IMG/VR virus record: IMGVR_UViG_3300018083_000059
Coordinates: 1-42,521 of that record
Length of the DNA stretch: 42,521 bases
Origin: a virus
Strand: one strand, 5' to 3'
Numbering within the stretch: the stretch's first letter is position 1; each line of letters starts with the position of its first letter. Positions 3,332 through 33,348 of the stretch are shown here, in pieces. The notes beneath the pieces were generated by a model. It had not been told where the DNA came from. It searched no databases and saw only the letters and a list, made by a program, of their open reading frames with translations. Made by a program: the position numbers and the translations under genes.

Positions 3332-3951
3332 TGTTGCCTTTGAAGCTCAGCGATCTCCGCATGTTGCGGAAGGCCGTGGCTGAGGCTGGGTTGCTGCGTG
3401 AGGAGCATGCGCGCGTTGCTGCGGATGTGGTGGCGCATCGTTCCAATGTGCATCGCCTCATGGCGGCGAAGGAAAGGGTGGAAGCCGAATTGCGGGCAGT
3501 CGAGGCCAAGCGGCAAGCCGCTGAGGCATGGTTGCAGAAGGTCAATGCATCCACCGAGGCCAGGCTGCAGCAAGCCAAGGATGGGGAGGCCTCCTACCGC
3601 AAGTCGGTCGAATTGCTGAAGGCCGAGAACACCGATCTGGACAAGCGTCGGCAGGCGCTTCGTGAGGCGTATGCCCGCGACCTCGATGGCGATCCGATCA
3701 AGAACCTCAAGAAGGAACTGGCCTCGATGCAGGCCCGCATCGACCAGTGGAGGGCGAAAAACATCCAGTTGGCTTCTCAGGTCGATGTGCTGAAGCAGGC
3801 CAACGCCAGGGGGTCGAAAGCCCTTAACGAGATGACGGATCGATATGAGAATTTGAAGGACGAGGTCGAGCGACGAGGGACTGAGAAAGAGGCCAAGCTA
3901 AACCGCCGCCGTCACTTGTTCGACCGCATCATGTCGGGCGGGACCGTCTGA
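3331..3951 (+). CDS. Hypothetical coiled-coil protein
   Basis: TGATG stop/start overlap with the upstream gene. Heptad-rich charged sequence (AELRAVEAKRQAAEAWLQK..., DLDKRRQALREAY...). Confidence 0.6.
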   Translation: MLPLKLSDLRMLRKAVAEAGLLREEHARVAADVVAHRSNVHRLMAAKERVEAELRAVEAKRQAAEAWLQKVNASTEARLQQAKDGEASYRKSVELLKAENTDLDKRRQALREAYARDLDGDPIKNLKKELASMQARIDQWRAKNIQLASQVDVLKQANARGSKALNEMTDRYENLKDEVERRGTEKEAKLNRRRHLFDRIMSGGTV

Positions 3952-3974: not shown

Positions 3975-4084
3975 GGCCGAAGGTCACTATTAGGCACTAA
4001 TTGGCATTAATTACCGACCGGGAATTAGTGACCGCGCTATGGCGCCTTATGGCGGCATATGGCGCTTGATTAAATCAGGAATGT
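3975..4084. promoter_or_regulatory. AT-rich structured intergenic region (candidate internal promoter or regulator binding array)
   Basis: GGTCACTA (3982) / TAGTGACC (4025) inverted repeat. Three TATGGCG copies at 4038, 4048 and 4058 (10-bp phasing). One inverted copy, CCGCCAT, at 3966. Confidence 0.4.
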
Positions 4085-4444
4085 ATGAACGACGAATATG
4101 CTGGCTGGATGCAGCGCTTCCGGCCCGGCGGCGACTATCGTTTTCACGGATGGGACGAGGTCCAGGGCATTCTATCGTGGCTGCATGTTCGTGATGATGG
4201 CGCCTGGGAGGTCGTGCAGCAGGCGATCTACGCGCCGAGCCTTTACGACATGAACAAGGAGGCCGAGGCCGACAGCAATGGGCAGCGGTTCGGCTCGGGC
4301 AAGCTGGTCGCGTCGATTCCGGTGAATATCGCCTATGCCACCGGCTTCATGGAGGCGGCCAAGGAGAAGGATCATCGCTGGATCGCCCGATTTCTAAATG
4401 ACCCAGCGCACAGATTCTTCAAACGCTTCGGAAGGAAACTCTGA
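4085..4444 (+). CDS. Hypothetical protein
   Basis: 119-aa ORF with good GC3. Stop overlaps the next start (TGATG). Confidence 0.6.
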   Translation: MNDEYAGWMQRFRPGGDYRFHGWDEVQGILSWLHVRDDGAWEVVQQAIYAPSLYDMNKEAEADSNGQRFGSGKLVASIPVNIAYATGFMEAAKEKDHRWIARFLNDPAHRFFKRFGRKL

Positions 4445-5061: not shown

Positions 5062-5664
5062 ATGGTTTGGAAAGACGTGACGTGTTCGGTCGGTGGATGC
5101 GATCGAGATGCCTATTGTCGGGGTCTATGCCAGAAGCATTATAACCGGCTCCACAAGACGGGTACGGTCACCGATCCGCCCCGGACCTATAAGCGCGGAT
5201 TGACGTTGGAACAGCGCCTGTGGGAGCACACCAAGGTCGGCGCTCCTGACGAATGCTGGGTTTGGGCTGGATCTACGAGCGAGAGCGGTTATGGCAAGCT
5301 GATTGACAGCTCTCAGGCCAAACGCCGACACCTCACGACCCATCGGGTGAGCTATGAAATCCACTATGGGCCGATCCCGCCTGGGGGGCTTGTTTGCCAC
5401 CACTGCGACAACCCTGCGTGTGTGAATCCGGCTCATCTTTTTGCCGGGATGGCCCGCGACAACTGTCTCGACATGATCGCCAAGGGGCGTGACCGGATTG
5501 TAGGCGAACGGCACAATCGCGCAAAGCTCAGAGCCGAAGATGTGAAGGCAATCCGTGCTATCGAGGGGATGTGTCAGAAGGACATCGCGGCGGCCTTTGG
5601 CATCAATCAGCCGCAGGTGTCGGCGATCCGGCGAGGCGCCGCTTGGCGGAGCCCGACGCCATGA
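5062..5664 (+). CDS. HNH homing-type endonuclease, second paralog
   Basis: AGGAG SD 6 nt before the ATG at 5062. CSVGGCDRDAYCRGLCQKHY; HRVSYEIHYGPIPPGGLVCHHCDNPACVNPAHLFAGMARDN; C-terminal HTH QKDIAAAFGINQPQVSAIRRG. Confidence 0.85.
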   Translation: MVWKDVTCSVGGCDRDAYCRGLCQKHYNRLHKTGTVTDPPRTYKRGLTLEQRLWEHTKVGAPDECWVWAGSTSESGYGKLIDSSQAKRRHLTTHRVSYEIHYGPIPPGGLVCHHCDNPACVNPAHLFAGMARDNCLDMIAKGRDRIVGERHNRAKLRAEDVKAIRAIEGMCQKDIAAAFGINQPQVSAIRRGAAWRSPTP

Positions 5665-5927
5665 CCAGCAGGCGAATCAACGTGAAGGAGGCGGCTGCAT
5701 ATCTTGGCGTCAGCAAGTCGGCGCTGGACAAGTGGCGCATGTCTCCGGAGGCCCGTGCTTATCAGCATCAGCATTATGGATGGGCGGCCACTGACGGGCC
5801 TCCATTTATCAGGATTGGCAGGCGGATCGTCTACGATACCGCCAACCTCGATCAGTGGATGGGGGTTGCACAAAACTCTGCACAAAACCCTGCACAAAAC
5901 CCTGACGTGTGGGACGTCGGGCCATGA
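5661..5927 (+). CDS. Excisionase/AlpA-type HTH DNA-binding protein
   Basis: ATGA overlap with the HNH stop. INVKEAAAYLGVSKSALDKWR...PPFIRIGRRIVYDTANLDQWM fits the HTH_17/MerR-like excisionase fold pattern. Confidence 0.65.
   Translation: MTSRRINVKEAAAYLGVSKSALDKWRMSPEARAYQHQHYGWAATDGPPFIRIGRRIVYDTANLDQWMGVAQNSAQNPAQNPDVWDVGP
5868..5903 (+). repeat. 12-bp tandem repeat x3 (GCACAAAACYCT)
   Basis: GCACAAAACTCT GCACAAAACCCT GCACAAAACCCT, encoding AQNS-AQNP-AQNP at the C-terminus of the HTH protein, 20 nt before the next start. Confidence 0.9.
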
Positions 5928-9794: not shown

Positions 9795-11129
9795 ATGGCT
9801 TACGGTGGGCTTCTCGACATCCTGCAGGGCATCCTCGGCCAGCAGGGACAGGGCTACGGCCAAGGCCAGGACCAGGGCAGCGGCATCCTGGGGATGATGG
9901 CGCAGCGGCAGCAGCAGGTGCCGACTAATCTGGCGACCGATAACGTTTATGGGCAGGGGTTGCTTGGTCAAGCAGGCAACGACCGACTGCTGGGTGCCGA
10001 CCTTGGCAACACCGGGGCCGATCGGCTTGGCGCGCCTGCCTCGGGGCTAGCCGACTATAGCGGCGGCCAAGGCACTGACACGCTTGGTCTTGGCGGGGCC
10101 GCAGCAGTTCCTGCACCTGCGGCGACGGCCACAAATACGGCAGCGCCTGCCGCTCAAGGCGGCGGCTTGCTCAGCGGCCTGTTCGGCGGCGGCGGGGGCA
10201 CAGCTGGCGGTGCGGGTCTCGCCGGCCTCGGCGGATGGGTTCAGAAGAACCCGGCGGCGATCGACGCCCTGGTCACCGGCTTTGCCAACATCGGCAACAA
10301 GAACGTCGGCAATCCCTTCCTTTACGGGGCGTCGCAGGCGGCACCGGAGTTCAAGGAGCAGAAAGCGCGGGACGAGCTCGAAAGCCGGCAGGAAGCGATG
10401 AAGTCGGCGATGCTGAAGCTCGGCTATCCGGCTGAGCTGGCTGCGGCGGCCGGGAAGATTCCCGAGCTTGGGACGACCGTCATTTCCCAGGCGCTGAAGC
10501 CGCGGGAGGCCAAGGACGCGCCGGCGCTCATGCAGGAATACCAGTATGCCGTGAGCCAGGGCTTCAAGGGTTCGCTCTTCGATTATCAGAAGGAATTGAG
10601 GCAAGCAGGCGCCACGACAGTTACCATTCCTCCCGATCGCGAGAAGTTGTCGCCCGGCTATCGCTGGGTGGACCCGAACGATATCAGCAAGGGTGAGGTA
10701 CCGGTTACTGGCGGCCCTGCCGAGCAGATGCCGGCTGAACTCGCCGCCCGTGTCGGCCTCGCCAAGGATGCCTTGAAGAAGCTGGACACGGTCGAGCAGG
10801 CGGCCAAGGAAGGCGTAATGACCGGCCCGATCGATTACACGACCGGCACCGTTCTAGGCCGCGGCAAGGCTGGAGAGATGTCGCGTGAACTCAACGCCGG
10901 GTCGGAGGCACTGGTTCGCATGCTCACCGGTGCCGGCATGAATGCGAGCGAGGCGAAGCGGGAGGCCAGCCAGTATCTGGTGCAGCCCACCGATAATGCG
11001 GAAACGCTGGCCAACAAGGTTTCGCAGCTGAAGCGCCGCCTGCAGGCGACGATCGTCGAGGCGACGCGCGGGAGAGGCGGCGTCAACCCGGCATCGCAGA
11101 CGACTGGTGATCCGGCAGGGATACGCTGA
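9795..11129 (+). CDS. Putative internal virion protein, Gly-rich N-terminal half
   Basis: 444 aa. Low-complexity G/Q/A N-terminus and structured C-terminal half. Lies in the series of large virion genes. Confidence 0.45.
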   Translation: MAYGGLLDILQGILGQQGQGYGQGQDQGSGILGMMAQRQQQVPTNLATDNVYGQGLLGQAGNDRLLGADLGNTGADRLGAPASGLADYSGGQGTDTLGLGGAAAVPAPAATATNTAAPAAQGGGLLSGLFGGGGGTAGGAGLAGLGGWVQKNPAAIDALVTGFANIGNKNVGNPFLYGASQAAPEFKEQKARDELESRQEAMKSAMLKLGYPAELAAAAGKIPELGTTVISQALKPREAKDAPALMQEYQYAVSQGFKGSLFDYQKELRQAGATTVTIPPDREKLSPGYRWVDPNDISKGEVPVTGGPAEQMPAELAARVGLAKDALKKLDTVEQAAKEGVMTGPIDYTTGTVLGRGKAGEMSRELNAGSEALVRMLTGAGMNASEAKREASQYLVQPTDNAETLANKVSQLKRRLQATIVEATRGRGGVNPASQTTGDPAGIR

Positions 11130-19324: not shown

Positions 19325-20314
19325 TCATATACGCTTTCTGCGTATGAGATATGGTTTTGTGTCGGATTTTGTGCCACTGATCCTGTCCGCTAGCGTGTCA
19401 TCCTCGGCGGCGTGCCCGTAGGTCGCGAAGACGTGCGCCGGGCTCTTCCACCCGCCCAGTTTCGCCACCGTCACCACATCGACGCCGGCCTGCAGCATCG
19501 CCGTAGCGAAACCATGCCGGCAGGCATGGAATGACAGCGGCTTGATCTCTGCCCGTGTGATCGCTGCATCCCACCTCGGCAAGGCGTTCTCTCGTGAGAG
19601 ATAACCGAACACCCGGCCGTTCGGCTGCTGGTCGATGTTGGCTATTGCGGCGACAAGGACGGGCGGCAGGTGGGCTCGGCGCTCGGCGCCTATCTTGGTC
19701 TGCCGGATCAGCGCGCGGGCATTGGGGAGGCTTACATCAGCCCAGCGAAGGCTGGTCGCCTCGGTGATCCGAGCGCCGGTCAGGAACATGAAGCAGGCAA
19801 GGGCGCCGAGATGCGGCGAGGCATGCGCCATGAACGCCTCGATCCAAAGCCAGGTCGCCGGTTCCTTCTCGTGTTTGACGACCGGGAAGCGCCGCATCCG
19901 CACGATGGGCGGGCAGAGGTCGTGGTCGGCAGCGTGGTTGATGATCGCCTGCGTCGGGACCAGGACATGGCGGTTCCGGGTCGCGCCCGAAGCATTGGGA
20001 TAAAGGGTCTTTGCCGATTCCCGGATAGCGCCGGTCGTGATGTCCTTCACGCGGGTGTCGCGCCAATAATCCTCGATCTTGTCGAGGAAGCGGGTCGGCT
20101 TGCCTGCCCTTCGGTAGAGAATGGCGGCTTGGGCGAACGTCAGAACGGCTTCGGGTCCATCGAGACGACTTTGCCATTGCTTCGCCGCGGCTTCGTCGGC
20201 GATGCGGCGCGCGATTGCCTGGTCCTCAGTACGCGTAGAGCCGCGTAGTCGCCGGCCGGCAACGGTGCCTCGGTAGTACCAGACCTCGCCACGCTTGAAG
20301 AGTGTGAGGGACAT
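19325..20314 (-). CDS. int: Tyrosine integrase
   Basis: MSLTLFKRGEVWYYRG N-terminus. TGARITE (Arg), HACRHGFAT (His-x-x-Arg), ATYGH (catalytic Tyr). Confidence 0.9.
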   Translation of the reverse strand: MSLTLFKRGEVWYYRGTVAGRRLRGSTRTEDQAIARRIADEAAAKQWQSRLDGPEAVLTFAQAAILYRRAGKPTRFLDKIEDYWRDTRVKDITTGAIRESAKTLYPNASGATRNRHVLVPTQAIINHAADHDLCPPIVRMRRFPVVKHEKEPATWLWIEAFMAHASPHLGALACFMFLTGARITEATSLRWADVSLPNARALIRQTKIGAERRAHLPPVLVAAIANIDQQPNGRVFGYLSRENALPRWDAAITRAEIKPLSFHACRHGFATAMLQAGVDVVTVAKLGGWKSPAHVFATYGHAAEDDTLADRISGTKSDTKPYLIRRKRI

Positions 20315-20472
20315 GGCTTTGTCGCCTTCAAGAGGGTGCGGACGTCGTCTTCGGTGAGCACCATAGTCTTGCCGATGACGCTGCAGGCGCCAAGGTCGCG
20401 GGCCAACTTGCGCAAAGTCCTTTCGGGGCAACCAAGCTGGGCGGCGACGGCTGCCGGCGTGAGGAATGTCAT
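20140..20472 (-). CDS. Excisionase-like HTH protein with a long 3' extension over the int start
   Basis: LTPAAVAAQLGCPERTLRKLARDLG...VLTEDDVRTLL HTH. The ORF runs 175 nt into the int coding region in another frame. Confidence 0.55.
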   Translation of the reverse strand: MTFLTPAAVAAQLGCPERTLRKLARDLGACSVIGKTMVLTEDDVRTLLKATKPCPSHSSSVARSGTTEAPLPAGDYAALRVLRTRQSRAASPTKPRRSNGKVVSMDPKPF

Positions 20473-22871: not shown

Positions 22872-23209
22872 CCGGCGGTCGGGCCTCTCGCATGAAGGGA
22901 AGTCGTAGAGAGCTTCAAGCCGTCCGTGTCATGCAGACGGCCGGCCTTGCCGCCGAGAAAACGCCCTTGTCGGGGTCTGTCGGCGGGAAATTTGCCGGCG
23001 ATATCTCCTGCCCGATCCTTGGCGTCGACCGGCGCTTCGAGGTCAAGGCCCGCGCCTCCGACTTCAGCCTGATCAGACGCTGGTTGGACGAGAATTACGG
23101 CCTGATCCTCAAGACCGATCGCAAACCAACCCTGGTCGTCATGCGGCTCGATGACTTCGCCGAGCTGGCCTATGGCGCCGACCGCAAGCGCCTGGAGGCC
23201 GCAGAATAA
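22868..23209 (+). CDS. Putative Holliday-junction-resolvase-like PD-(D/E)XK endonuclease
   Basis: KGSRRELQAVRVMQTAGLAAEKTPLSGS...GDISCPILGVDRRFEVKAR resembles archaeal Hjc-like phage resolvases. ATGA coupled to cro. Confidence 0.5.
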   Translation: MTGGRASRMKGSRRELQAVRVMQTAGLAAEKTPLSGSVGGKFAGDISCPILGVDRRFEVKARASDFSLIRRWLDENYGLILKTDRKPTLVVMRLDDFAELAYGADRKRLEAAE

Positions 23210-23775
23210 TGGACGCGATCGTCAAGAACGCCCATCTGTGGCGGCGCCATCCCGAAGACTTCTACGTCGAGCCAGGTTGGGTTTCGTGGAGGTTATTCGA
23301 CGTTGAACAGTTCAAGGGGGCAATATGGGATCCAGCTTGCGGAATAGGACGGATCGTCGATTCAGCAAGTCGGAATCATCATTATCTTTCATTCGGGTCT
23401 GACATCGTTAAGCGGTCGGACTGGTGTGAGAACGAAATAGATTTCCTCTCTGCCCCTGTTCAAGAGTGGCACGAGATCGTCAGCAATCCACCTTTCGGCA
23501 TCGCCGACAAATTCATCAAGCACGCCCTTGCCGCTCGCAAGGTGGCGATGCTCCTCCCGACGAAATGGATGAATAGCGCTGCCCGCGGCAAGTGGCTTGA
23601 GACCACGCCGCTGAAGCAAGTGTTGCTGCTTGCGCCACGGCCGTCGATGCCGCCTGGCCCGGTGATCGAGGCCGGCGAGAAGCCCGGCAACGGCACCGTC
23701 GACTTTGCCTGGTTCGTGTGGGAGCGCGGCTATATCGGCGCACCGACCATCGGGTGGCTGAGGAGAGACGAATGA
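23209..23775 (+). CDS. Small DNA N6-adenine methyltransferase
   Basis: IWDPACGIGRI (SAM motif I) and SNPPFGIADKF (motif IV, NPPF). 188 aa. The N-terminal half is visibly lower in GC. Confidence 0.75.
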   Translation: MDAIVKNAHLWRRHPEDFYVEPGWVSWRLFDVEQFKGAIWDPACGIGRIVDSASRNHHYLSFGSDIVKRSDWCENEIDFLSAPVQEWHEIVSNPPFGIADKFIKHALAARKVAMLLPTKWMNSAARGKWLETTPLKQVLLLAPRPSMPPGPVIEAGEKPGNGTVDFAWFVWERGYIGAPTIGWLRRDE

Positions 23776-25912: not shown

Positions 25913-28030
25913 GTGCCGGCAATCTCCTTTCATCCTGAATTTGCCGGCCCGTCTGACTGGGCCGCCATGTACCGCCGATGCGGCCTGCAGGTGGTCCCGG
26001 CGCCATACCCGATGCGCGCTGCCGGCGACAAGCGCCCGGCGCTGCCGGAATGGCGAACCCTGCACGAGGCCCTGGTCACCGACACGGTGTTCGAGCGCTG
26101 GTACGCCTACGGTACCGGCACGTACCACAAGAACCCCAATATGGGCGTCATCTGCGGCCATGCCTCGGACAACCTCATGGTCATCGACGCCGACCAGTAC
26201 AAGTCGGCGACCTCGGGCAACTGGTGGCAGGACGTCATCAGGGTCCATAACCACGGCATCGACCCTGACACCTGGCGGGCGAAGACCGGCGGCGGCGGTA
26301 CGCATCGATTCTTCAAGGCGCCGATGCATTGGCGCGTGCCGACCAACAGCACCGCCCTCGAGGTCGACATCCGTGGCCAGGGCGGCTTTGCCATGCTGCC
26401 GCCCAGCAAGCACCTAAGCGGCAATGATTACGAGTGGATCGACGGCTTCGAGCCGTGGACCACCGAACTCGCCGAAGCGCCGCAATGGCTCCTGGATGCG
26501 ATCGACGAGCTGGTCGCAAACCATGCCGGCGCCGGCACTGGCGGGACCGCACGTACCACCCATCACGGCCCCGACTTCGATGCCCTCGGTTTCCGGATCA
26601 ACGGCCGCGAACAGTATATGACGCAAATGGTCTGGGCGGCCTGCGTCAACCTGTGGCGCGACAGCCCGATCATGCCGCATCCGGCCGACCTCGACCGCCT
26701 GATGCGAGAGGCATACGCGGTTTATGAGCTCCAGGTTGGAACCCGGCTGAAAGGCGTCGACAGGGATGCCGGCCTGGAGCAGGAGGGACGCGGCATCTCG
26801 ATGTTCGCCGTCAAGTGGCGACGAGCTCTGTCGAAGTGGGAAGGCAAGATCGCCGAGGACGGCGCCATCCCATCACCGAACCAGCCACCGCCAGGACAGA
26901 CGCCACCGGGCGCCCCACCGCCACCGCCTGGATCACAGTCGGGATGGTCTGCAGGGCAGTTCAGTGGCACTTCAGACCCGATCCCTGTCGGCAGCATCAA
27001 AGGCATCCCCAAGCCGCGAAAGTGGCTGGTGCAGGAATGGATACCAGCCGGCGCTATTACCGCGCTCTACGGCGACGGCGGTACCGGCAAGACCCTCCTC
27101 GGCCAGCAGCTTGTCTATGCAGGCGACATCGGCGCCATGTGGCTCGGCATCGAGATGCCAATAACGCGCAGCCTCGCTGTCCTTTGCGAGGACGATATGG
27201 ATGAACTCCATCGCCGCCATGACGATATCAAGGCCGACCTTGGCCATGCGATCGGCAATCCCTTCACAAGATCATGGGTCTGGCCGCGGGTTGGCAGTGA
27301 CAACATCCTGGTGACGTTCGACCGCGACAACCGGCCGAACGTTTCGGCCTTTTTCTTCCTGATCAAAAAGCACGTCCTCGACAAGCAGATAGAGCTTTTG
27401 GTGCTCGACACCGTCGCCGACTTCTTCGGCGGTAATGAGAACATCAAGGCGCAGGTTAACTACTTCATCAAGGTGATGTGCGCCGACCTTATCGTTGAAG
27501 CCCACGCCGCCGGCTTCACGCTGACCGTGGTGCTGCTGGCACATCCATCACAAGCCGGCATGAACACCGGCGCCGGCACCGCCGGTTCGGTTGGATGGAA
27601 TGCCGGCGTCAGGTCGCGCCTTTATCTCACCCGCGATCCGAACGGCGGCGCCAATGACCGAATCCTCGCCCGGATGAAATCCAACTACGCGGCAGCTGGC
27701 GATGACAAGACCATGAATCTGGTCTGGGCGGATGGCGTCCTCAAGCCACGCCTGCCTGGCGCCGTGGCGTGGCCCGATCGCCATACCTGCCAGCAGATCC
27801 TCGACGCCATCGCCGAAGCCTGGAATTCGGGAAAGCCGTGGTCGAGCGCGCCACGATCGAAAACTGAAAACCGATACGCCGCCGAACGCATCTCGGAGAA
27901 GTTCCCGGTGCGCATCAGGCAGGCCGAGATGATGATCAAAACATGGATCAAAAACGAGGTGCTCAGCACCGAAATTGCGTCTTCGCATAAAAACCTCAGG
28001 GGACTGAAGGTAATTGGCAAAATCGATTGA
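25913..28030 (+). CDS. Bifunctional primase-polymerase / RecA-like (AAA_25, RepA/P4-alpha-type) helicase
   Basis: GTG start after GAAGGA. Prim-pol motifs LMVIDAD, GGGGTHRFF, VDIRGQGGFAMLPPSKH..YEW. Walker A YGDGGTGKT, then LVLDT (Walker B-like). Confidence 0.85.
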   Translation: MPAISFHPEFAGPSDWAAMYRRCGLQVVPAPYPMRAAGDKRPALPEWRTLHEALVTDTVFERWYAYGTGTYHKNPNMGVICGHASDNLMVIDADQYKSATSGNWWQDVIRVHNHGIDPDTWRAKTGGGGTHRFFKAPMHWRVPTNSTALEVDIRGQGGFAMLPPSKHLSGNDYEWIDGFEPWTTELAEAPQWLLDAIDELVANHAGAGTGGTARTTHHGPDFDALGFRINGREQYMTQMVWAACVNLWRDSPIMPHPADLDRLMREAYAVYELQVGTRLKGVDRDAGLEQEGRGISMFAVKWRRALSKWEGKIAEDGAIPSPNQPPPGQTPPGAPPPPPGSQSGWSAGQFSGTSDPIPVGSIKGIPKPRKWLVQEWIPAGAITALYGDGGTGKTLLGQQLVYAGDIGAMWLGIEMPITRSLAVLCEDDMDELHRRHDDIKADLGHAIGNPFTRSWVWPRVGSDNILVTFDRDNRPNVSAFFFLIKKHVLDKQIELLVLDTVADFFGGNENIKAQVNYFIKVMCADLIVEAHAAGFTLTVVLLAHPSQAGMNTGAGTAGSVGWNAGVRSRLYLTRDPNGGANDRILARMKSNYAAAGDDKTMNLVWADGVLKPRLPGAVAWPDRHTCQQILDAIAEAWNSGKPWSSAPRSKTENRYAAERISEKFPVRIRQAEMMIKTWIKNEVLSTEIASSHKNLRGLKVIGKID

Positions 28031-28050
28031 TTATTCAATTAGTTATGGGC

Positions 28051-28162
28051 TTGCGAAGACGCCTGCTAAGACGCTTGCGAAGACGTCTGCGAAGACGCGA
28101 AGACGGTATCCTCAAACCCGCAGAAACCCTTGCGAAGACGTTGCGAAGACATGTGCGAAGAC
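28051..28162. repeat. Iteron array (TGCGAAGAC), candidate origin of replication
   Basis: Copies at 28052, 28076, 28088, 28131, 28142, 28154. Variant TGCTAAGAC at 28064, truncated GCGAAGAC at 28097. The first four are 12-bp phased. Lies directly after the primase/helicase stop. Confidence 0.6.
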
Positions 28163-28164
28163 AT

Positions 28165-28214
28165 CCCCCCCCGTACCCCCCCCCCGCACGCGAGGGAGGC
28201 TTGGGGCCTCCTCG
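28165..28214. other. C8-GTA-C10 homopolymer pair followed by a GC hairpin and an A7 tract
   Basis: CCCCCCCC (28165-72) GTA CCCCCCCCCC (28176-85). CGAGG(G)AGGC / GCCTCCTCG stem at 28191-28214. AAAAAAA at 28222-28. Confidence 0.8.
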
Positions 28215-28283
28215 CGGCGGCAAAAAAAGAACCCCACCAAACCGCCCCGGCCACAACGCCGTGGACAACGTCAGGAGGACGCA

Positions 28284-28685
28284 TTGCGCTACCGGGATTG
28301 CATGATCGTTTGGACGCCGATCAATTCGTTCGTCTGGAACCACGACGAGAAGAAAACAGTCCCCAACCCTCGGCGAGGAGAAATCAGGGTTGGGCTTCAT
28401 CCCCATGAAACCGATTCATTAGCAGGCTACGACAAGAGCACAGGTGCCTGCCATTGGGACCGGAAAAGCATGACGCCATTGATGCAGGTCGCGTTCATGC
28501 TCGTCGACTTCTACGAGATCATCACTCATGACGGCCTGAACCCGCGGAAGGTCCACAAAGCATTCCTGGCGATCGACGAATTCCGCTGGGTCATCTCACC
28601 CGACATGGAAGGCGCCGAACCGGCCCCGGAAGAGTGGGCGAAGCAGATGAGGCTTGCCGGTTATGTCGAGGCCCAGCATGCCTAA
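28284..28685 (+). CDS. Hypothetical protein
   Basis: TTG at 28284 lies 5 nt after a perfect AGGAGG; the alternative start is the ATG at 28302. The upstream part of track ORF 28014.. only translates the iterons. Confidence 0.5.
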   Translation: MRYRDCMIVWTPINSFVWNHDEKKTVPNPRRGEIRVGLHPHETDSLAGYDKSTGACHWDRKSMTPLMQVAFMLVDFYEIITHDGLNPRKVHKAFLAIDEFRWVISPDMEGAEPAPEEWAKQMRLAGYVEAQHA

Positions 28686-29304
28686 GCCCCCCACCAAGCC
28701 CGTCGACCGCCCCACCCATCCCGCCGTCCCGCCCTGGCACCAGACCCACGGCACCTACATTGCCGGAAGATCCTTCCTCGATGCGGTCGACATGCTGGCG
28801 GCCGAGATGGAGGCGAAGTGGGGGGCAGGCCGGCTACGCCTCCTCGTCCCCCAGCTCATGCGCGAGCGCTTCGACCGGCAGCGCTATCTGCTCAACCAGG
28901 CCGTCTGGCATGGCGACATCGAAGCTGTCCGTACCCAGGCACCACGCATGGCCACCGCCTGGCGCGTCCTCGACGAGCAAGCCACCCGTGACGGCCAAGG
29001 CCGCCTCGGCGACATGGTCTGGGAAATCACCCTCGGCGACGGCGGCGTGGCAGCCATCGTCCCCGACGCCCATCACGCCAGCAAGGTCCAGCCCGAAGGA
29101 CGTCACGTCCGGGTCTACACCCTCGACGAAATCGGAAGGCTCCTGACCGCCTTCCCCGAACTCGCCAAGGCGAAGGAAACATTCCCCGGCGCTACCGTCA
29201 TCGCCGCCAGGCGAACCATCCCCGACCCCCTCGACGCCATCGCTGACACCCAGCATGGCCTCGACGACGATCTCGACGACCGGGGGCCTTTTGATGCCCG
29301 CTAA
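28678..29304 (+). CDS. Hypothetical protein
   Basis: ATG at 28678 overlaps the upstream gene by 8 nt; 208 aa, good GC3. Confidence 0.55.
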   Translation: MPKPPTKPVDRPTHPAVPPWHQTHGTYIAGRSFLDAVDMLAAEMEAKWGAGRLRLLVPQLMRERFDRQRYLLNQAVWHGDIEAVRTQAPRMATAWRVLDEQATRDGQGRLGDMVWEITLGDGGVAAIVPDAHHASKVQPEGRHVRVYTLDEIGRLLTAFPELAKAKETFPGATVIAARRTIPDPLDAIADTQHGLDDDLDDRGPFDAR

Positions 29305-30180: not shown

Positions 30181-30413
30181 ATTCTACCGCGCGATCGCTA
30201 GTCCATCGATCGTCTGTTCACATCAAGGATATGGCCCTGTCCGTGCAGGTGAAGCGCATGCTTAGGGATAGCGGATTGCGAACCGCCGCAGGCGTGAGAA
30301 ACAAGACAGAAGATCAACTACTCCGTCTGCCAGGCTTCGGTCAGCGACGCCTAAGCGAGGTCAGGGACGCTCTCGCGGAACTGGGTTTCACCCTCAATCT
30401 GAACGGGCAATAA
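30177..30413 (+). CDS. RNA polymerase alpha-subunit C-terminal-domain-like (helix-hairpin-helix) protein
   Basis: DMALSVQVKRMLRDSGLRTAAGVRNKTEDQLLRLPGFGQRRLSEVRDALAELGFTL follows the alpha-CTD pattern L.LSVR..N.L...gI.....L...t...L......G.kSl.Ei...L...G..L. Confidence 0.55.
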   Translation: MNSTARSLVHRSSVHIKDMALSVQVKRMLRDSGLRTAAGVRNKTEDQLLRLPGFGQRRLSEVRDALAELGFTLNLNGQ

Positions 30414-30961: not shown

Positions 30962-32488
30962 ATGACCGAGGACGAGCGGCTGTCGATCAAGCAGCGGCTC
31001 AAGGACGACTTCGCCCACTACGCCGCCCGCTGCCTCACCATCCGGGCCAAGGACGGTGCGCTCCAGCATCTCGATTTGAACCGGGCTCAAAAGCATATCC
31101 ACAAGCGCCTGGAGGCCCAGAAGGACCGTACCGGCAAGGTGCGTGCGCTCGTCCTCAAGGGTCGGCAGCAGGGTGTGTCGACGCTGATCGGGGCCCGCTT
31201 CTATCACGCGGTCACCCACCTCACGGGGCGTCGGGTGTTTATTCTGACGCATGAGGATGCGGCGACCGCCAACCTGTTCGAGATGGTCCAGCGGTTTCAC
31301 GACAACCTGCCGCCGGCGATCAAGCCCGAGACCGGCGCCGCCAACGCCAAGGAGCTGGCGTTCTCGTCGCTCGATAGCGGCTACAAGGTCGGCACGGCTG
31401 GCACCAAGGGCGTTGGGCGAAGCTCGACGATCCAGTTCTTTCATGCGTCGGAATGCGCTTTCTGGCCACATGCCGAGACACATGAATCGGGCGTGTTGCA
31501 GGCGGTCCCCGACGAGCCCGGCACCGAGGTCATTCTTGAGAGCACCGCCAACGGCCTCGGCAACATGTTTCACCGCCGCTGGCGGGATGCCGAGCTCGGC
31601 GTCGGCGATTACCAGGCGATCTTCGTCCCCTGGTACTGGGATGATGGGTACGCTCGGGCTCCAGGCCCGCGGTTCGTCCTCGACGTTGAGGAGGCCGAGT
31701 ACGCCGAGGCTTACGGCCTGAGCGACGCGCAGATCGCCTGGCGCAGGGCGAAGATCATCGAGCTGAAATCGCCCGTTCTCTTCCGGCAGGAATACCCGGC
31801 GACCGCCGCCGAGGCGTTTCAGATGAGCGGCCACGACAGCTACATCGCCCCCGAGCTCGTCGCCAGGGCCCGGCATACGCGGGTCGAGCCGCACGGGCCC
31901 TTGGTCATCGGTTACGATCCGGCGTGGAAGGGCGACGACCGCTCGAGCATGGCTTGGCGGCGAGGCCGGTCGGTCTACCGCATCGAGAGCAAGCACGGCA
32001 TCGACACGATGCAGGGCGCCGGCTGGGCCAAGCAGGTGATTGACCGCGATCGCCCGAAGCGGATGTTCATCGACGTCGGCGGCATTGGCGCCGGGATCTA
32101 CGATCGCCTGTGCGAGATGGGCTATGACGAGGTCGTCCAGGCGGTGAACTTTGGTTCGTCGCCGCTCGAGCCGCAGCCTGAGGATGTTAATGGGATTCAA
32201 CGCGGCGGGCCGAGGAATCGCCGGGCCGAGATGTGGATGTGGCTGAAGGACTGGCTTGAAGATCCGGCCGGCGTCTCGATCCCTGACAGCGACAGCTTGC
32301 AGGCCGACATCTGCGGGCCTGGGTACAAGTGGGACAGCAACACGCGGCTGTTGCTGGAGAGCAAGGACGATATGAGACGTCGCGGGGTTCTGTCGCCGGA
32401 CGAGGGCGACGCGGTGGCGCTGACGTTCGCCGAGCCGGTGGCGCCGGAGCAGGCGTACACGCCGCCGGTCAGGGAATGGGTCGTGTGA
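30962..32488 (+). CDS. terL: Terminase large subunit
   Basis: 508 aa. Walker-A-like LVLKGRQQGVST. ATPase then nuclease halves. Lies directly after terS. Confidence 0.9.
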   Translation: MTEDERLSIKQRLKDDFAHYAARCLTIRAKDGALQHLDLNRAQKHIHKRLEAQKDRTGKVRALVLKGRQQGVSTLIGARFYHAVTHLTGRRVFILTHEDAATANLFEMVQRFHDNLPPAIKPETGAANAKELAFSSLDSGYKVGTAGTKGVGRSSTIQFFHASECAFWPHAETHESGVLQAVPDEPGTEVILESTANGLGNMFHRRWRDAELGVGDYQAIFVPWYWDDGYARAPGPRFVLDVEEAEYAEAYGLSDAQIAWRRAKIIELKSPVLFRQEYPATAAEAFQMSGHDSYIAPELVARARHTRVEPHGPLVIGYDPAWKGDDRSSMAWRRGRSVYRIESKHGIDTMQGAGWAKQVIDRDRPKRMFIDVGGIGAGIYDRLCEMGYDEVVQAVNFGSSPLEPQPEDVNGIQRGGPRNRRAEMWMWLKDWLEDPAGVSIPDSDSLQADICGPGYKWDSNTRLLLESKDDMRRRGVLSPDEGDAVALTFAEPVAPEQAYTPPVREWVV

Positions 32489-33348
32489 CCACGCGGCTCT
32501 TGGTTGGCGATTGCCGGCAGAAGCTCGCGGAACTGGCCGACGAGAGCGTCCACTGCATCGTTACGAGCCCTCCCTACTACGGGCTTCGGGATTATGGCGT
32601 CGACGGGCAGATCGGCCTTGAGGCGACGCCCGAGGCGTATGTCGCCGAACTGGTGGCGGTGTTCCGCGAATGCCGAAGGGTGCTGAGGAGCGACGGGACA
32701 CTTTGGTGCAATTTGGGCGACTCTTATGCGGCGAAGAACCTGATCGGCATTCCGTGGCTGGTGGCCTTCGCCCTCCGCGCCGATGGCTGGTGGCTGCGGC
32801 AGGACATCATCTGGGCCAAGCCGAACCCGATGCCGGAAAGTGTTCTTGACCGGTGTACGAAGAGCCACGAATACTTGTTCATGCTCTCCAAAAACAGCAG
32901 TTATTATTACGACAATGATGCAGTGAGAGAGCCTTATAGCGAAAAATCAATCGGCAGATATGAGTACGAATTTCAGGGCACTGCGCCGACGTGCAATCAG
33001 GTTGGAGGAGATGTCGGTCGTCGAGAACGTGAACGTGGCATTCGCCCACCTAACCCACTTGGGAGGAATCGTCGCTCTGTTTGGACCATAAATAGCGAGC
33101 CGTTTAACGACGCGCATTTCGCCACCTTTCCGCCGGCACTGGTCGAACCCTGCATCAAGGCGGGCAGCAGGGTTGGCGATACGATCTTGGACCCCTTCGC
33201 CGGCGCCGGCACCACCGGCCTTGTCGCCGATCGCCTCGGCCGCAACGCCGTACTGATCGAGCTGAACCCGGCCTATGCCGGGATGATGCGCGATCGCATC
33301 GTCAACGACGCGCCGCTGTTCGCTGAGGTCATGGACGCCGCCGAATGA
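32476..33348 (+). CDS. Beta-class N4-cytosine/N6-adenine DNA methyltransferase (N6_N4_Mtase family)
   Basis: CIVTSPPYYGLRDY (motif IV, SPPY) near the N-terminus and ILDPFAGAGTTGLVA (motif I) near the C-terminus. Start is the ATG at 32476 or the GTG at 32485. Confidence 0.85.
   Translation: MGRVTTRLLVGDCRQKLAELADESVHCIVTSPPYYGLRDYGVDGQIGLEATPEAYVAELVAVFRECRRVLRSDGTLWCNLGDSYAAKNLIGIPWLVAFALRADGWWLRQDIIWAKPNPMPESVLDRCTKSHEYLFMLSKNSSYYYDNDAVREPYSEKSIGRYEYEFQGTAPTCNQVGGDVGRRERERGIRPPNPLGRNRRSVWTINSEPFNDAHFATFPPALVEPCIKAGSRVGDTILDPFAGAGTTGLVADRLGRNAVLIELNPAYAGMMRDRIVNDAPLFAEVMDAAE

Follow-up and report, generated by a model that had tools for sequence, protein, structure and literature searches.

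A probable iteron-containing replication origin beside a Prim-Pol/RepA-type/winged-helix gene in a temperate phage genome

The temperate tailed-phage genome analysed here (IMG/VR record IMGVR_UViG_3300018083_000059, 42,521 nucleotides, called the window throughout) carries a group of short direct repeats just 3' of a gene for a 705-aa primase-helicase, followed by two C tracts, a GC-rich hairpin, and a run of A. This locus raises the question of whether the repeats belong to the phage replication origin and, if so, which protein reads them. A preliminary description made from the sequence alone had proposed an origin, and repeat arrays at the matching position in homologous phages, the observation on which that proposal could have failed, were found. 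The interval 27979–28236 is probably the phage replication origin and the adjoining Prim-Pol/RepA-type/winged-helix protein its initiator, as judged from sequence comparison and structure prediction. The features of the locus are as follows.

25913–28030, plus strand: gene for the 705-aa Prim-Pol, RepA-like helicase, and C-terminal winged-helix protein, the proposed initiator-helicase-primase (Pfam, PHROG, and profile matches)
27776–28027, plus strand: coding region of the winged-helix domain, about residues 622–705, the proposed iteron reader (predicted fold)
27979–27987, minus strand: inverted exact iteron
28018–28047, no strand: AT-rich segment CAAAATCGATTGATTATTCAATTAGTTATG, candidate DNA-unwinding element
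28052–28104, plus strand: iteron cluster I, five copies (28052, the 28064 variant, 28076, 28088, and 28096) at spacings of 12, 12, 12, and 8 bp
28105–28130, no strand: inter-cluster spacer, iteron start-to-start distance 35 bp
28131–28162, plus strand: iteron cluster II, three exact copies at spacings of 11 and 12 bp
28165–28185, plus strand: C8-GTA-C10, with C8 at 28165–28172 and C10 at 28176–28185
28184–28220, no strand: GC-rich hairpin or cruciform element
28222–28228, plus strand: A7 run
28678–29304, plus strand: gene X, encoding a conserved 208-aa product, the right-hand limit of the origin interval in most relatives whose loci extend far enough

The iteron array and its flanking elements

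The array is built from the 9-mer TGCGAAGAC, which occurs six times exactly on the plus strand, at 28052, 28076, 28088, 28131, 28142, and 28154. Two further copies differ by one mismatch, one at 28064 (TGCTAAGAC) and one at 28096 (CGCGAAGAC), the latter overlapping the 28088 copy at a spacing of 8 bp. The eight direct copies are located 22–132 nt 3' of the primase-helicase stop codon. The preliminary description had placed the six exact copies and the 28064 variant correctly, with the first four copies 12 bp apart, and had listed a truncated copy at 28097; however, it overlooked a seventh exact copy, which lies inverted at 27979–27987 within the last codons of the primase-helicase gene. Dinucleotide shuffles gave 0.40 ± 0.62 exact copies against the seven present, with a maximum of 3, and none of 100 shuffles reached 7. 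All of the exact copies in the 42.5-kb window are confined to 27979–28162, and in the rest of the window the number of one-mismatch copies, 16 against an expected 11.8, is at the level of chance.

The AT-rich segment at 28018–28047 overlaps the stop codon and is the lowest-stability duplex of the 42.5-kb window at both 20 and 30 bp, as calculated from nearest-neighbour ΔG. It is located between the inverted iteron and the direct array and adjoins the first direct iteron. On this calculation the segment is the likely unwinding element, a better candidate than the A7 run or the C tracts.

The C8 and C10 tracts, found together with the A7 run exactly where the preliminary description had placed them, are the only G/C homopolymers of at least 7 nt in 42.5 kb. 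The complement, G10-TAC-G8, satisfies the G-quadruplex sequence rule, for which the window has only three sites; the preliminary description had suggested that the G-rich strand could form a G-quadruplex or i-motif. The hairpin that follows had been described as a 9-bp stem with one bulge at 28191–28214; the hairpin itself was recovered, but it is longer, extending over 28184–28220 with about 15 bp and two bulges (DNA ΔG −17.8 kcal/mol, z = −3.25). It was also considered as a canonical intrinsic terminator, and this assignment was rejected since the hairpin is followed by A7 rather than by a T run and the terminator scan found no terminator there. A search of 27500–28800 against Rfam, at E values up to 1, found no RNA family.

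The replication protein and its genome context

The product of 25913–28030 features a Prim-Pol domain (PF09250, E 4e-24) and an AAA_25 domain (PF13481, E 4e-22), and it matches PHROG DNA polymerase/primase families. A single-sequence phmmer search of the PDB with the 705-aa protein gave no match; only the profile of the family alignment reached RSF1010 RepA (1G8Y) with an E value of 3.8e-11 over helicase positions 354–574. The AF2 model of the C-terminal domain (residues ~610–705, pLDDT 88) features four helices followed by a beta hairpin (H-H-H-H-beta-beta). The top Foldseek matches to this domain are mostly winged-helix DNA-binding domains, including the KAT6A winged helix bound to DNA, LexA, MarR, and the N-terminal domain of DnaD, and all of these matches are weak (E 0.1–1, TM 0.5–0.6). 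Taking the predicted fold together with the comparisons described below, the winged helix at residues ~622–705 probably reads the iterons. Prim-Pol/RepA/winged-helix architectures were catalogued by sequence analysis in 2018, and the C-terminal winged helix of related families was suggested to recognise origins (PMC5862659).

The window encodes an integrase on the minus strand (19325–20431), and the genes for the small terminase, the large terminase, and the portal protein are located at 30413, 30962, and 34627, respectively. The replication module contains a RusA-like resolvase, a methyltransferase, and a PD-(D/E)XK nuclease, and the iteron element is located at the end of this module. There are two DNA methyltransferase genes in the window, one in the replication module (23209–23775) and one after the large terminase gene (32329–33348). 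The GC skew tracks gene orientation and is uninformative. Other short direct repeats occur far from the replication module. The stretch 3980–4067, which is AT-rich and located between ORFs (one ending at 3951 and one starting at 4085), is among the least stable duplexes of the window. In it, two different 10-bp units are each directly repeated three times, CACTAWTWGG at 3985–4012 and TATGGCGSYW at 4038–4065; the stretch may be a further site for protein binding, with a role in regulation or in packaging. At 5867–5904, TGCACAAAACYC is repeated three times with 12-bp spacing just 5' of the GTG start (5909) of an ORF for a virion structural protein.

Megablast and tblastn searches of 50,697 deposited phage records found no close relative. 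No full-length homologue of the primase-helicase was found among PLSDB plasmids, so there is no natural minimal replicon that could be used as evidence. The sole relative among viral contigs is L001 (75% identity), which is truncated before the end of the gene, and pattern scans of the viral contigs for the gene end with the AT-rich segment, and for the C tract with the hairpin, gave no matches.

Conservation and variation of the locus in relatives

The closest comparison is provided by locus L123, on a JGI contig, which encodes a primase-helicase (P0002) that is 85% identical to that of the window. Directly 3' of its stop codon, L123 has an AT-rich segment that is nearly identical to 28018–28047, a first iteron cluster closed by an overlapping 8-bp pair, and then, past a spacer, the second cluster, C8-AGA-C8, a GC hairpin with bulges, and an A run; the unit common to both loci ends at about 28236. 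The tight 8-bp pair that closes cluster I is also found in L008, L034, L045, L054, and L038. There is no counterpart in L123 of the inverted copy at 27979, and in several distant relatives (L085, L038, L057, and L087) the array opens with inverted copies. The hairpin has kept its shape in L123 with three stem positions changed on both arms, as read by the author from the alignment. Every iteron in L123 is TGCGGAAGT and not TGCGAAGAC, and the flanks are nearly identical to those of the window. Identity between the two proteins (85% overall) is 93% in the helicase and 85% in the Prim-Pol domain and drops to 64% over the last 81 aligned residues, which makes the winged helix their most diverged part. 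A concerted change of all iterons is what would be expected if the reader protein changed along with the repeat. L123 additionally has a second array at ~10500–10800, about 2.4 kb downstream of the primase gene, with seven copies of GGCAAGGC, and this array is probably inside a coding region.

In the blastn alignment with L123, similarity stops at 28236 and picks up again at 28668, which defines 28237–28667 as a 431-bp insertion in the window relative to L123. This bears on ORF 28014–28685, which the preliminary description had dismissed as a mere translation of the iterons. That description holds over the iterons, and a repeat protein was rejected, L123 having no gene call across the array; however, the 3' part of the ORF falls in the insertion and may, from its sequence, be a real gene. 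The inserted ORF would run from TTG 28284 or ATG 28302 to 28685 (~127–133 aa), its stop codon and the ATG of the following gene overlap (ATGCCTAA), and it gave no family or structure match.

A second contig bears on the C tracts. L124 (Ga0455888_0000993) was assembled independently of the window and comes, like L123, from JGI sample 3300043602. Its primase gene is identical to that of the window, and it stops exactly before the C8 run: its terminal sequence is ...TGCGAAGACAT, and its positions 5240–5252 correspond to 28152–28164 of the window. Such an end is typical of coverage loss at G/C homopolymers and indicates that these runs trouble assembly, so that the exact tract lengths are uncertain, much as had been anticipated when the runs were called slippage-prone and hard to sequence. 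It would also suit a reading in which C8 and C10 are in part an assembly or sequencing artefact of unreliable length and form only a GC-rich spacer without a function of its own. This reading is doubtful, with some chance of being right. In L123, which is a different genome, the sequence continues through C8-AGA-C8 at this place, and many distant loci have a CCCC(C)TA box and then palindromes or GC hairpins directly after the last iteron, where the window has its C tracts. The C runs are therefore not merely slippage noise, and a C-rich element at this position is, by these comparisons, inherited.

The distant relatives were gathered from metagenomes and genomes by homologue alignment. This gave 122 loci, 70 of them with a full-length homologue (29–52% identity), and an array was called where four or more identical 8-mers fell inside 300 nt. 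About half of the 64–70 distant-homologue loci carry an array by this definition, with iterons of 7–9 bp; the other half, which fail the strict exact-8-mer rule, may have degenerate repeats or too little downstream sequence. The arrays sit directly 3' of the stop codon or 0.1–2.4 kb downstream of it and are almost absent elsewhere in the loci. The commonest iterons are GCGGAGG, GCGGAAG, GCGGAGA, and GCGAAAG, and others include GCTGAGGT, ACGGAGGT, CCGGAGGT, TGGCGCA, ATGACGAT, CAAGCGTT, and ATGACACTC. In the relatives' loci the density of GCGRARR is 12.3 per kb in the array and 1.0 per kb outside it. Iteron spacing peaks at 9–12 bp with a second peak at 8 bp, and the distance between clusters is most often 33–36 bp, compared with 35 bp in the window. 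Folding is stronger in the 70 nt that follow the final iteron (median z −1.7) than in control segments (median z −0.3; Mann-Whitney p = 2e-5).

Many of these relatives feature a near-invariant AT box, CATTGAAATCATT, between the iteron clusters, which the window does not have. Its 27 matches are all on the gene strand, all 3' of the primase stop codon, and all in or beside the array region. The form (CT)AAGTCATTGAAATCATTG is found within the arrays of L084, L019, L021, L087, L057, L018, L064, L071, and others, and L123 has the AT-box-related CCAATGAAATCAATG. Unlike the iterons, the AT box hardly changes from locus to locus. This constancy suggests that its reader is conserved too, and the reader could be a host protein, for example IHF, or a conserved region of the replication protein. 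By eye, the AT-rich segment of the window and the AT box of the relatives might each contain an IHF-like site (TTCAA-N4-TTA).

Gene X was found by tblastn in 47 of the 70 loci with identities of 33–92%, and it has no match in Pfam, PHROG, NCBIfam, or the PDB. Many loci show higher conservation of gene X than of the primase-helicase. Extra genes that differ from locus to locus are present on either side of the array, and in about 12 loci they are located between the primase gene and the array. Adjacency of the array and the primase gene is thus not obligatory, and the site looks like an insertion hotspot.

The array is always flanked by two conserved transcription units, those of the primase gene and of gene X, a position that would also suit an operator or other regulatory site. 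Such a site, with either the primase-helicase or a different protein of the phage bound to it, would control transcription at the junction or autoregulate the primase. Iterons in plasmid systems often serve also as autoregulatory sites, and the hairpins after the arrays of L085 and L038 resemble intrinsic terminators that end in a T run. This explanation is nevertheless quite unlikely. The scan of 27500–28800 for promoters and terminators found no sigma-70-like promoter on the plus strand and one weak promoter-like site on the minus strand, and the window hairpin, with A7 and no T run after it, is not a canonical terminator on either strand. Additionally, the insertion of genes on either side means that the array is not tied to one promoter, and the stability minimum and the winged-helix primase-helicase alongside it fit initiation of replication better.

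The replication protein is a three-part mosaic, which makes it possible to compare its domains separately with the iterons. The Prim-Pol domain is 31–50% identical to that of all relatives. The helicase of the window is 41–63% identical to that of a group formed by L003, L006, L007, and L082, and ~20% identical to all others. The winged helices of this group are only 20–22% identical to that of the window, and its members with arrays (L003, L007, and L082) have different iterons, ATGACGAT, CAAGCGTT, and ATGACACTC. The winged helix of the window is instead 29–53% identical to those of proteins with GCGGAGG/GCGGAAG-type iterons (of the GCGRARR kind), whose helicases are only ~20% identical. The split in winged-helix identity (29–53% and ~20–27%) therefore partitions the relatives differently from the helicase split. 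Partial Mantel tests of iteron similarity against domain identity gave r = 0.27 (p = 0.001) for the winged helix, r = 0.15 (p = 0.02) for the helicase, and r = 0.01 (not significant) for the Prim-Pol domain; the partial correlation for the winged helix is modest, and its association with the iterons is confounded by phylogeny. Within the sequences compared, iteron class follows the winged helix and not the helicase. Gene X is 54–58% identical to the window copy in L008, L085, L088, and L003 whatever the iteron class, and so it is not the specificity partner.

These comparisons also bear on the use of the array in another DNA transaction, either as a pac/cos site for the small terminase or as a partition centromere. 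The parC site of plasmid R1 features two clusters of short repeats one helical turn apart, and the two short-repeat clusters of the window, phased at 11–12 bp, resemble centromere and TerS-binding arrays; the small-terminase gene is 2.2 kb downstream, at 30413. Such a function is highly improbable. The phage has an integrase (19325–20431), no partition gene was found among the neighbouring ORFs scanned, and across the family the array tracks the primase gene and the type of winged helix, not the terminase, while the constant neighbour, gene X, is not the specificity partner.

Origin model and relation to known systems

In the origin model, the winged helices of several subunits would bind the 8–9-bp iterons, which are arranged in two clusters with copies about one helical turn apart and an opposed copy at 27979. 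Binding would concentrate the helicase beside 28018–28047, the least stable duplex of the genome, and lead to melting there. The helicase ring would then load on the single strand, and the Prim-Pol domain would make the first primer, possibly at the C-tract/hairpin element beyond cluster II. Ring helicases of the RepA type ordinarily depend on single-stranded DNA and on a distinct initiator protein, RepC in the case of RSF1010. Self-loading is for this reason an extrapolation from SF3 systems.

The nearest functional parallel is found in SaPI and PICI elements. Experimental studies of SaPI Rep showed a C-terminal winged helix and 6–12 short iterons located immediately 3' of rep around an AT-rich region (PMC9371898). 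In SaPI the winged helix reads the iterons, some of which face each other, an AT-rich region melts, and specificity differs between close relatives (PMC9371898); the window has a predicted winged helix as its proposed iteron reader, a candidate melting region, and iterons that differ from those of L123. The window, with eight direct copies and one inverted copy just downstream of the initiator-helicase gene, falls in the same range of 6–12. SaPI5, like the window, encodes its primase and helicase as one protein. There are several differences. SaPI Reps are AAA+ proteins of the SF3 and MCM groups, whereas the motor in the window is RecA-type and RSF1010-RepA-like and its primase is a Prim-Pol. 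The AT-rich region of SaPI is central to the opposed iterons, and that of the window is at one edge of a direct array; the opposed copy at 27979 recalls the SaPI arrangement, but this copy is absent from L123. SaPI iterons are 5–6 nt and belong to a satellite element, whereas those of the window are 8–9 bp and belong to a complete temperate phage.

P4 alpha requires two separated iteron sites, ori and crr, whereas the window has a single iteron site at 27979–28162. The P4 alpha protein combines a primase, a helicase, and a C-terminal winged helix for octamer-class iterons in one polypeptide (PMC4234260), as is proposed here. Its primase is of the Toprim (DnaG) type and its helicase belongs to SF3, whereas the window protein is built from a Prim-Pol and a RepA-type helicase. 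The P4-alpha-type origin named in the preliminary description is thus useful as an analogy and not as a class assignment.

The iterons of RSF1010 are 20 bp and are bound by RepC. IncQ plasmid RSF1010 uses three separate proteins (RepA, RepB', and RepC), whereas in the window these functions are apparently fused and the iterons are 9 bp at 11–12-bp spacing. The resemblance lies in the RepA-homologous helicase (1G8Y) and in the primase, which belongs to the archaeo-eukaryotic primase superfamily as does RepB'. The RSF1010 oriV also features iterons, an AT-rich segment, a GC-rich segment, and hairpins, and the ssiA and ssiB hairpins are the priming sites of RepB' (PMC4234260; PMC8567376). ORF904 of pRN1 and Bordetella phages BIP-1/BPP-1 likewise combine Prim-Pol, helicase, and C-terminal winged helix in one protein, and their cis-acting origin is located just 3' of the gene with a required stem-loop (PMC4234260). 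Their helicases are SF3 and their origins have no iterons, whereas in the window the iterons dominate and the hairpin is accessory. Priming at the C-tract/hairpin element would parallel the ssiA/ssiB hairpins or the pRN1 stem-loop. Classical iteron plasmids differ from the window, with a two-winged-helix Rep protein (Rep_3, WH1-WH2) and iterons of 17–22 bp at ~22-bp spacing, and no Pfam match to Rep_3 or a similar family was found in the neighbouring ORFs. The proposed origin would therefore work like those of SaPI, P4, or IncQ and belong to none of them, its helicase being RSF1010-RepA-like and not SF3.

No description of origins for this Prim-Pol/RepA-type/winged-helix protein family was found in the literature searched. 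The kind of element is familiar; what is new is the RecA-type motor, an origin grammar conserved over a large group of uncultivated phages, and relatives with switched iteron specificity. A more far-reaching proposal, which is unlikely, is that the locus is the type example of an undescribed origin class, used by temperate phages that form a large uncultivated group across several bacterial phyla; in this class one self-loading polypeptide would replace the three IncQ proteins. The grammar of such a class would be fixed, with clusters ~35 bp apart, the AT box CATTGAAATCATT, and a 'CCCCTA' palindrome with a GC hairpin; in the lineage of the window the palindrome would have been replaced by C/G runs (i-motif or G-quadruplex) that act as the signal for strand opening or priming, and origin firing would perhaps be sensitive to slippage.

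Self-loading initiator-helicases that read iterons with a winged helix have so far been studied only with AAA+ motors, in P4, SaPI, and pRN1. If the origin model is true, the same solution evolved around a RecA-type RepA helicase, and the system would test how a RepA-type ring that acts on single-stranded DNA gets loaded at an origin. The window (TGCGAAGAC) and L123 (TGCGGAAGT), with nearly identical flanks, form a natural specificity-swap pair. The result marks a probable origin in a widespread uncultivated phage family that has no cultured or annotated close relative, and the combination of iterons, AT box, and CCCCTA hairpin provides a search pattern for annotating the origins of this family.
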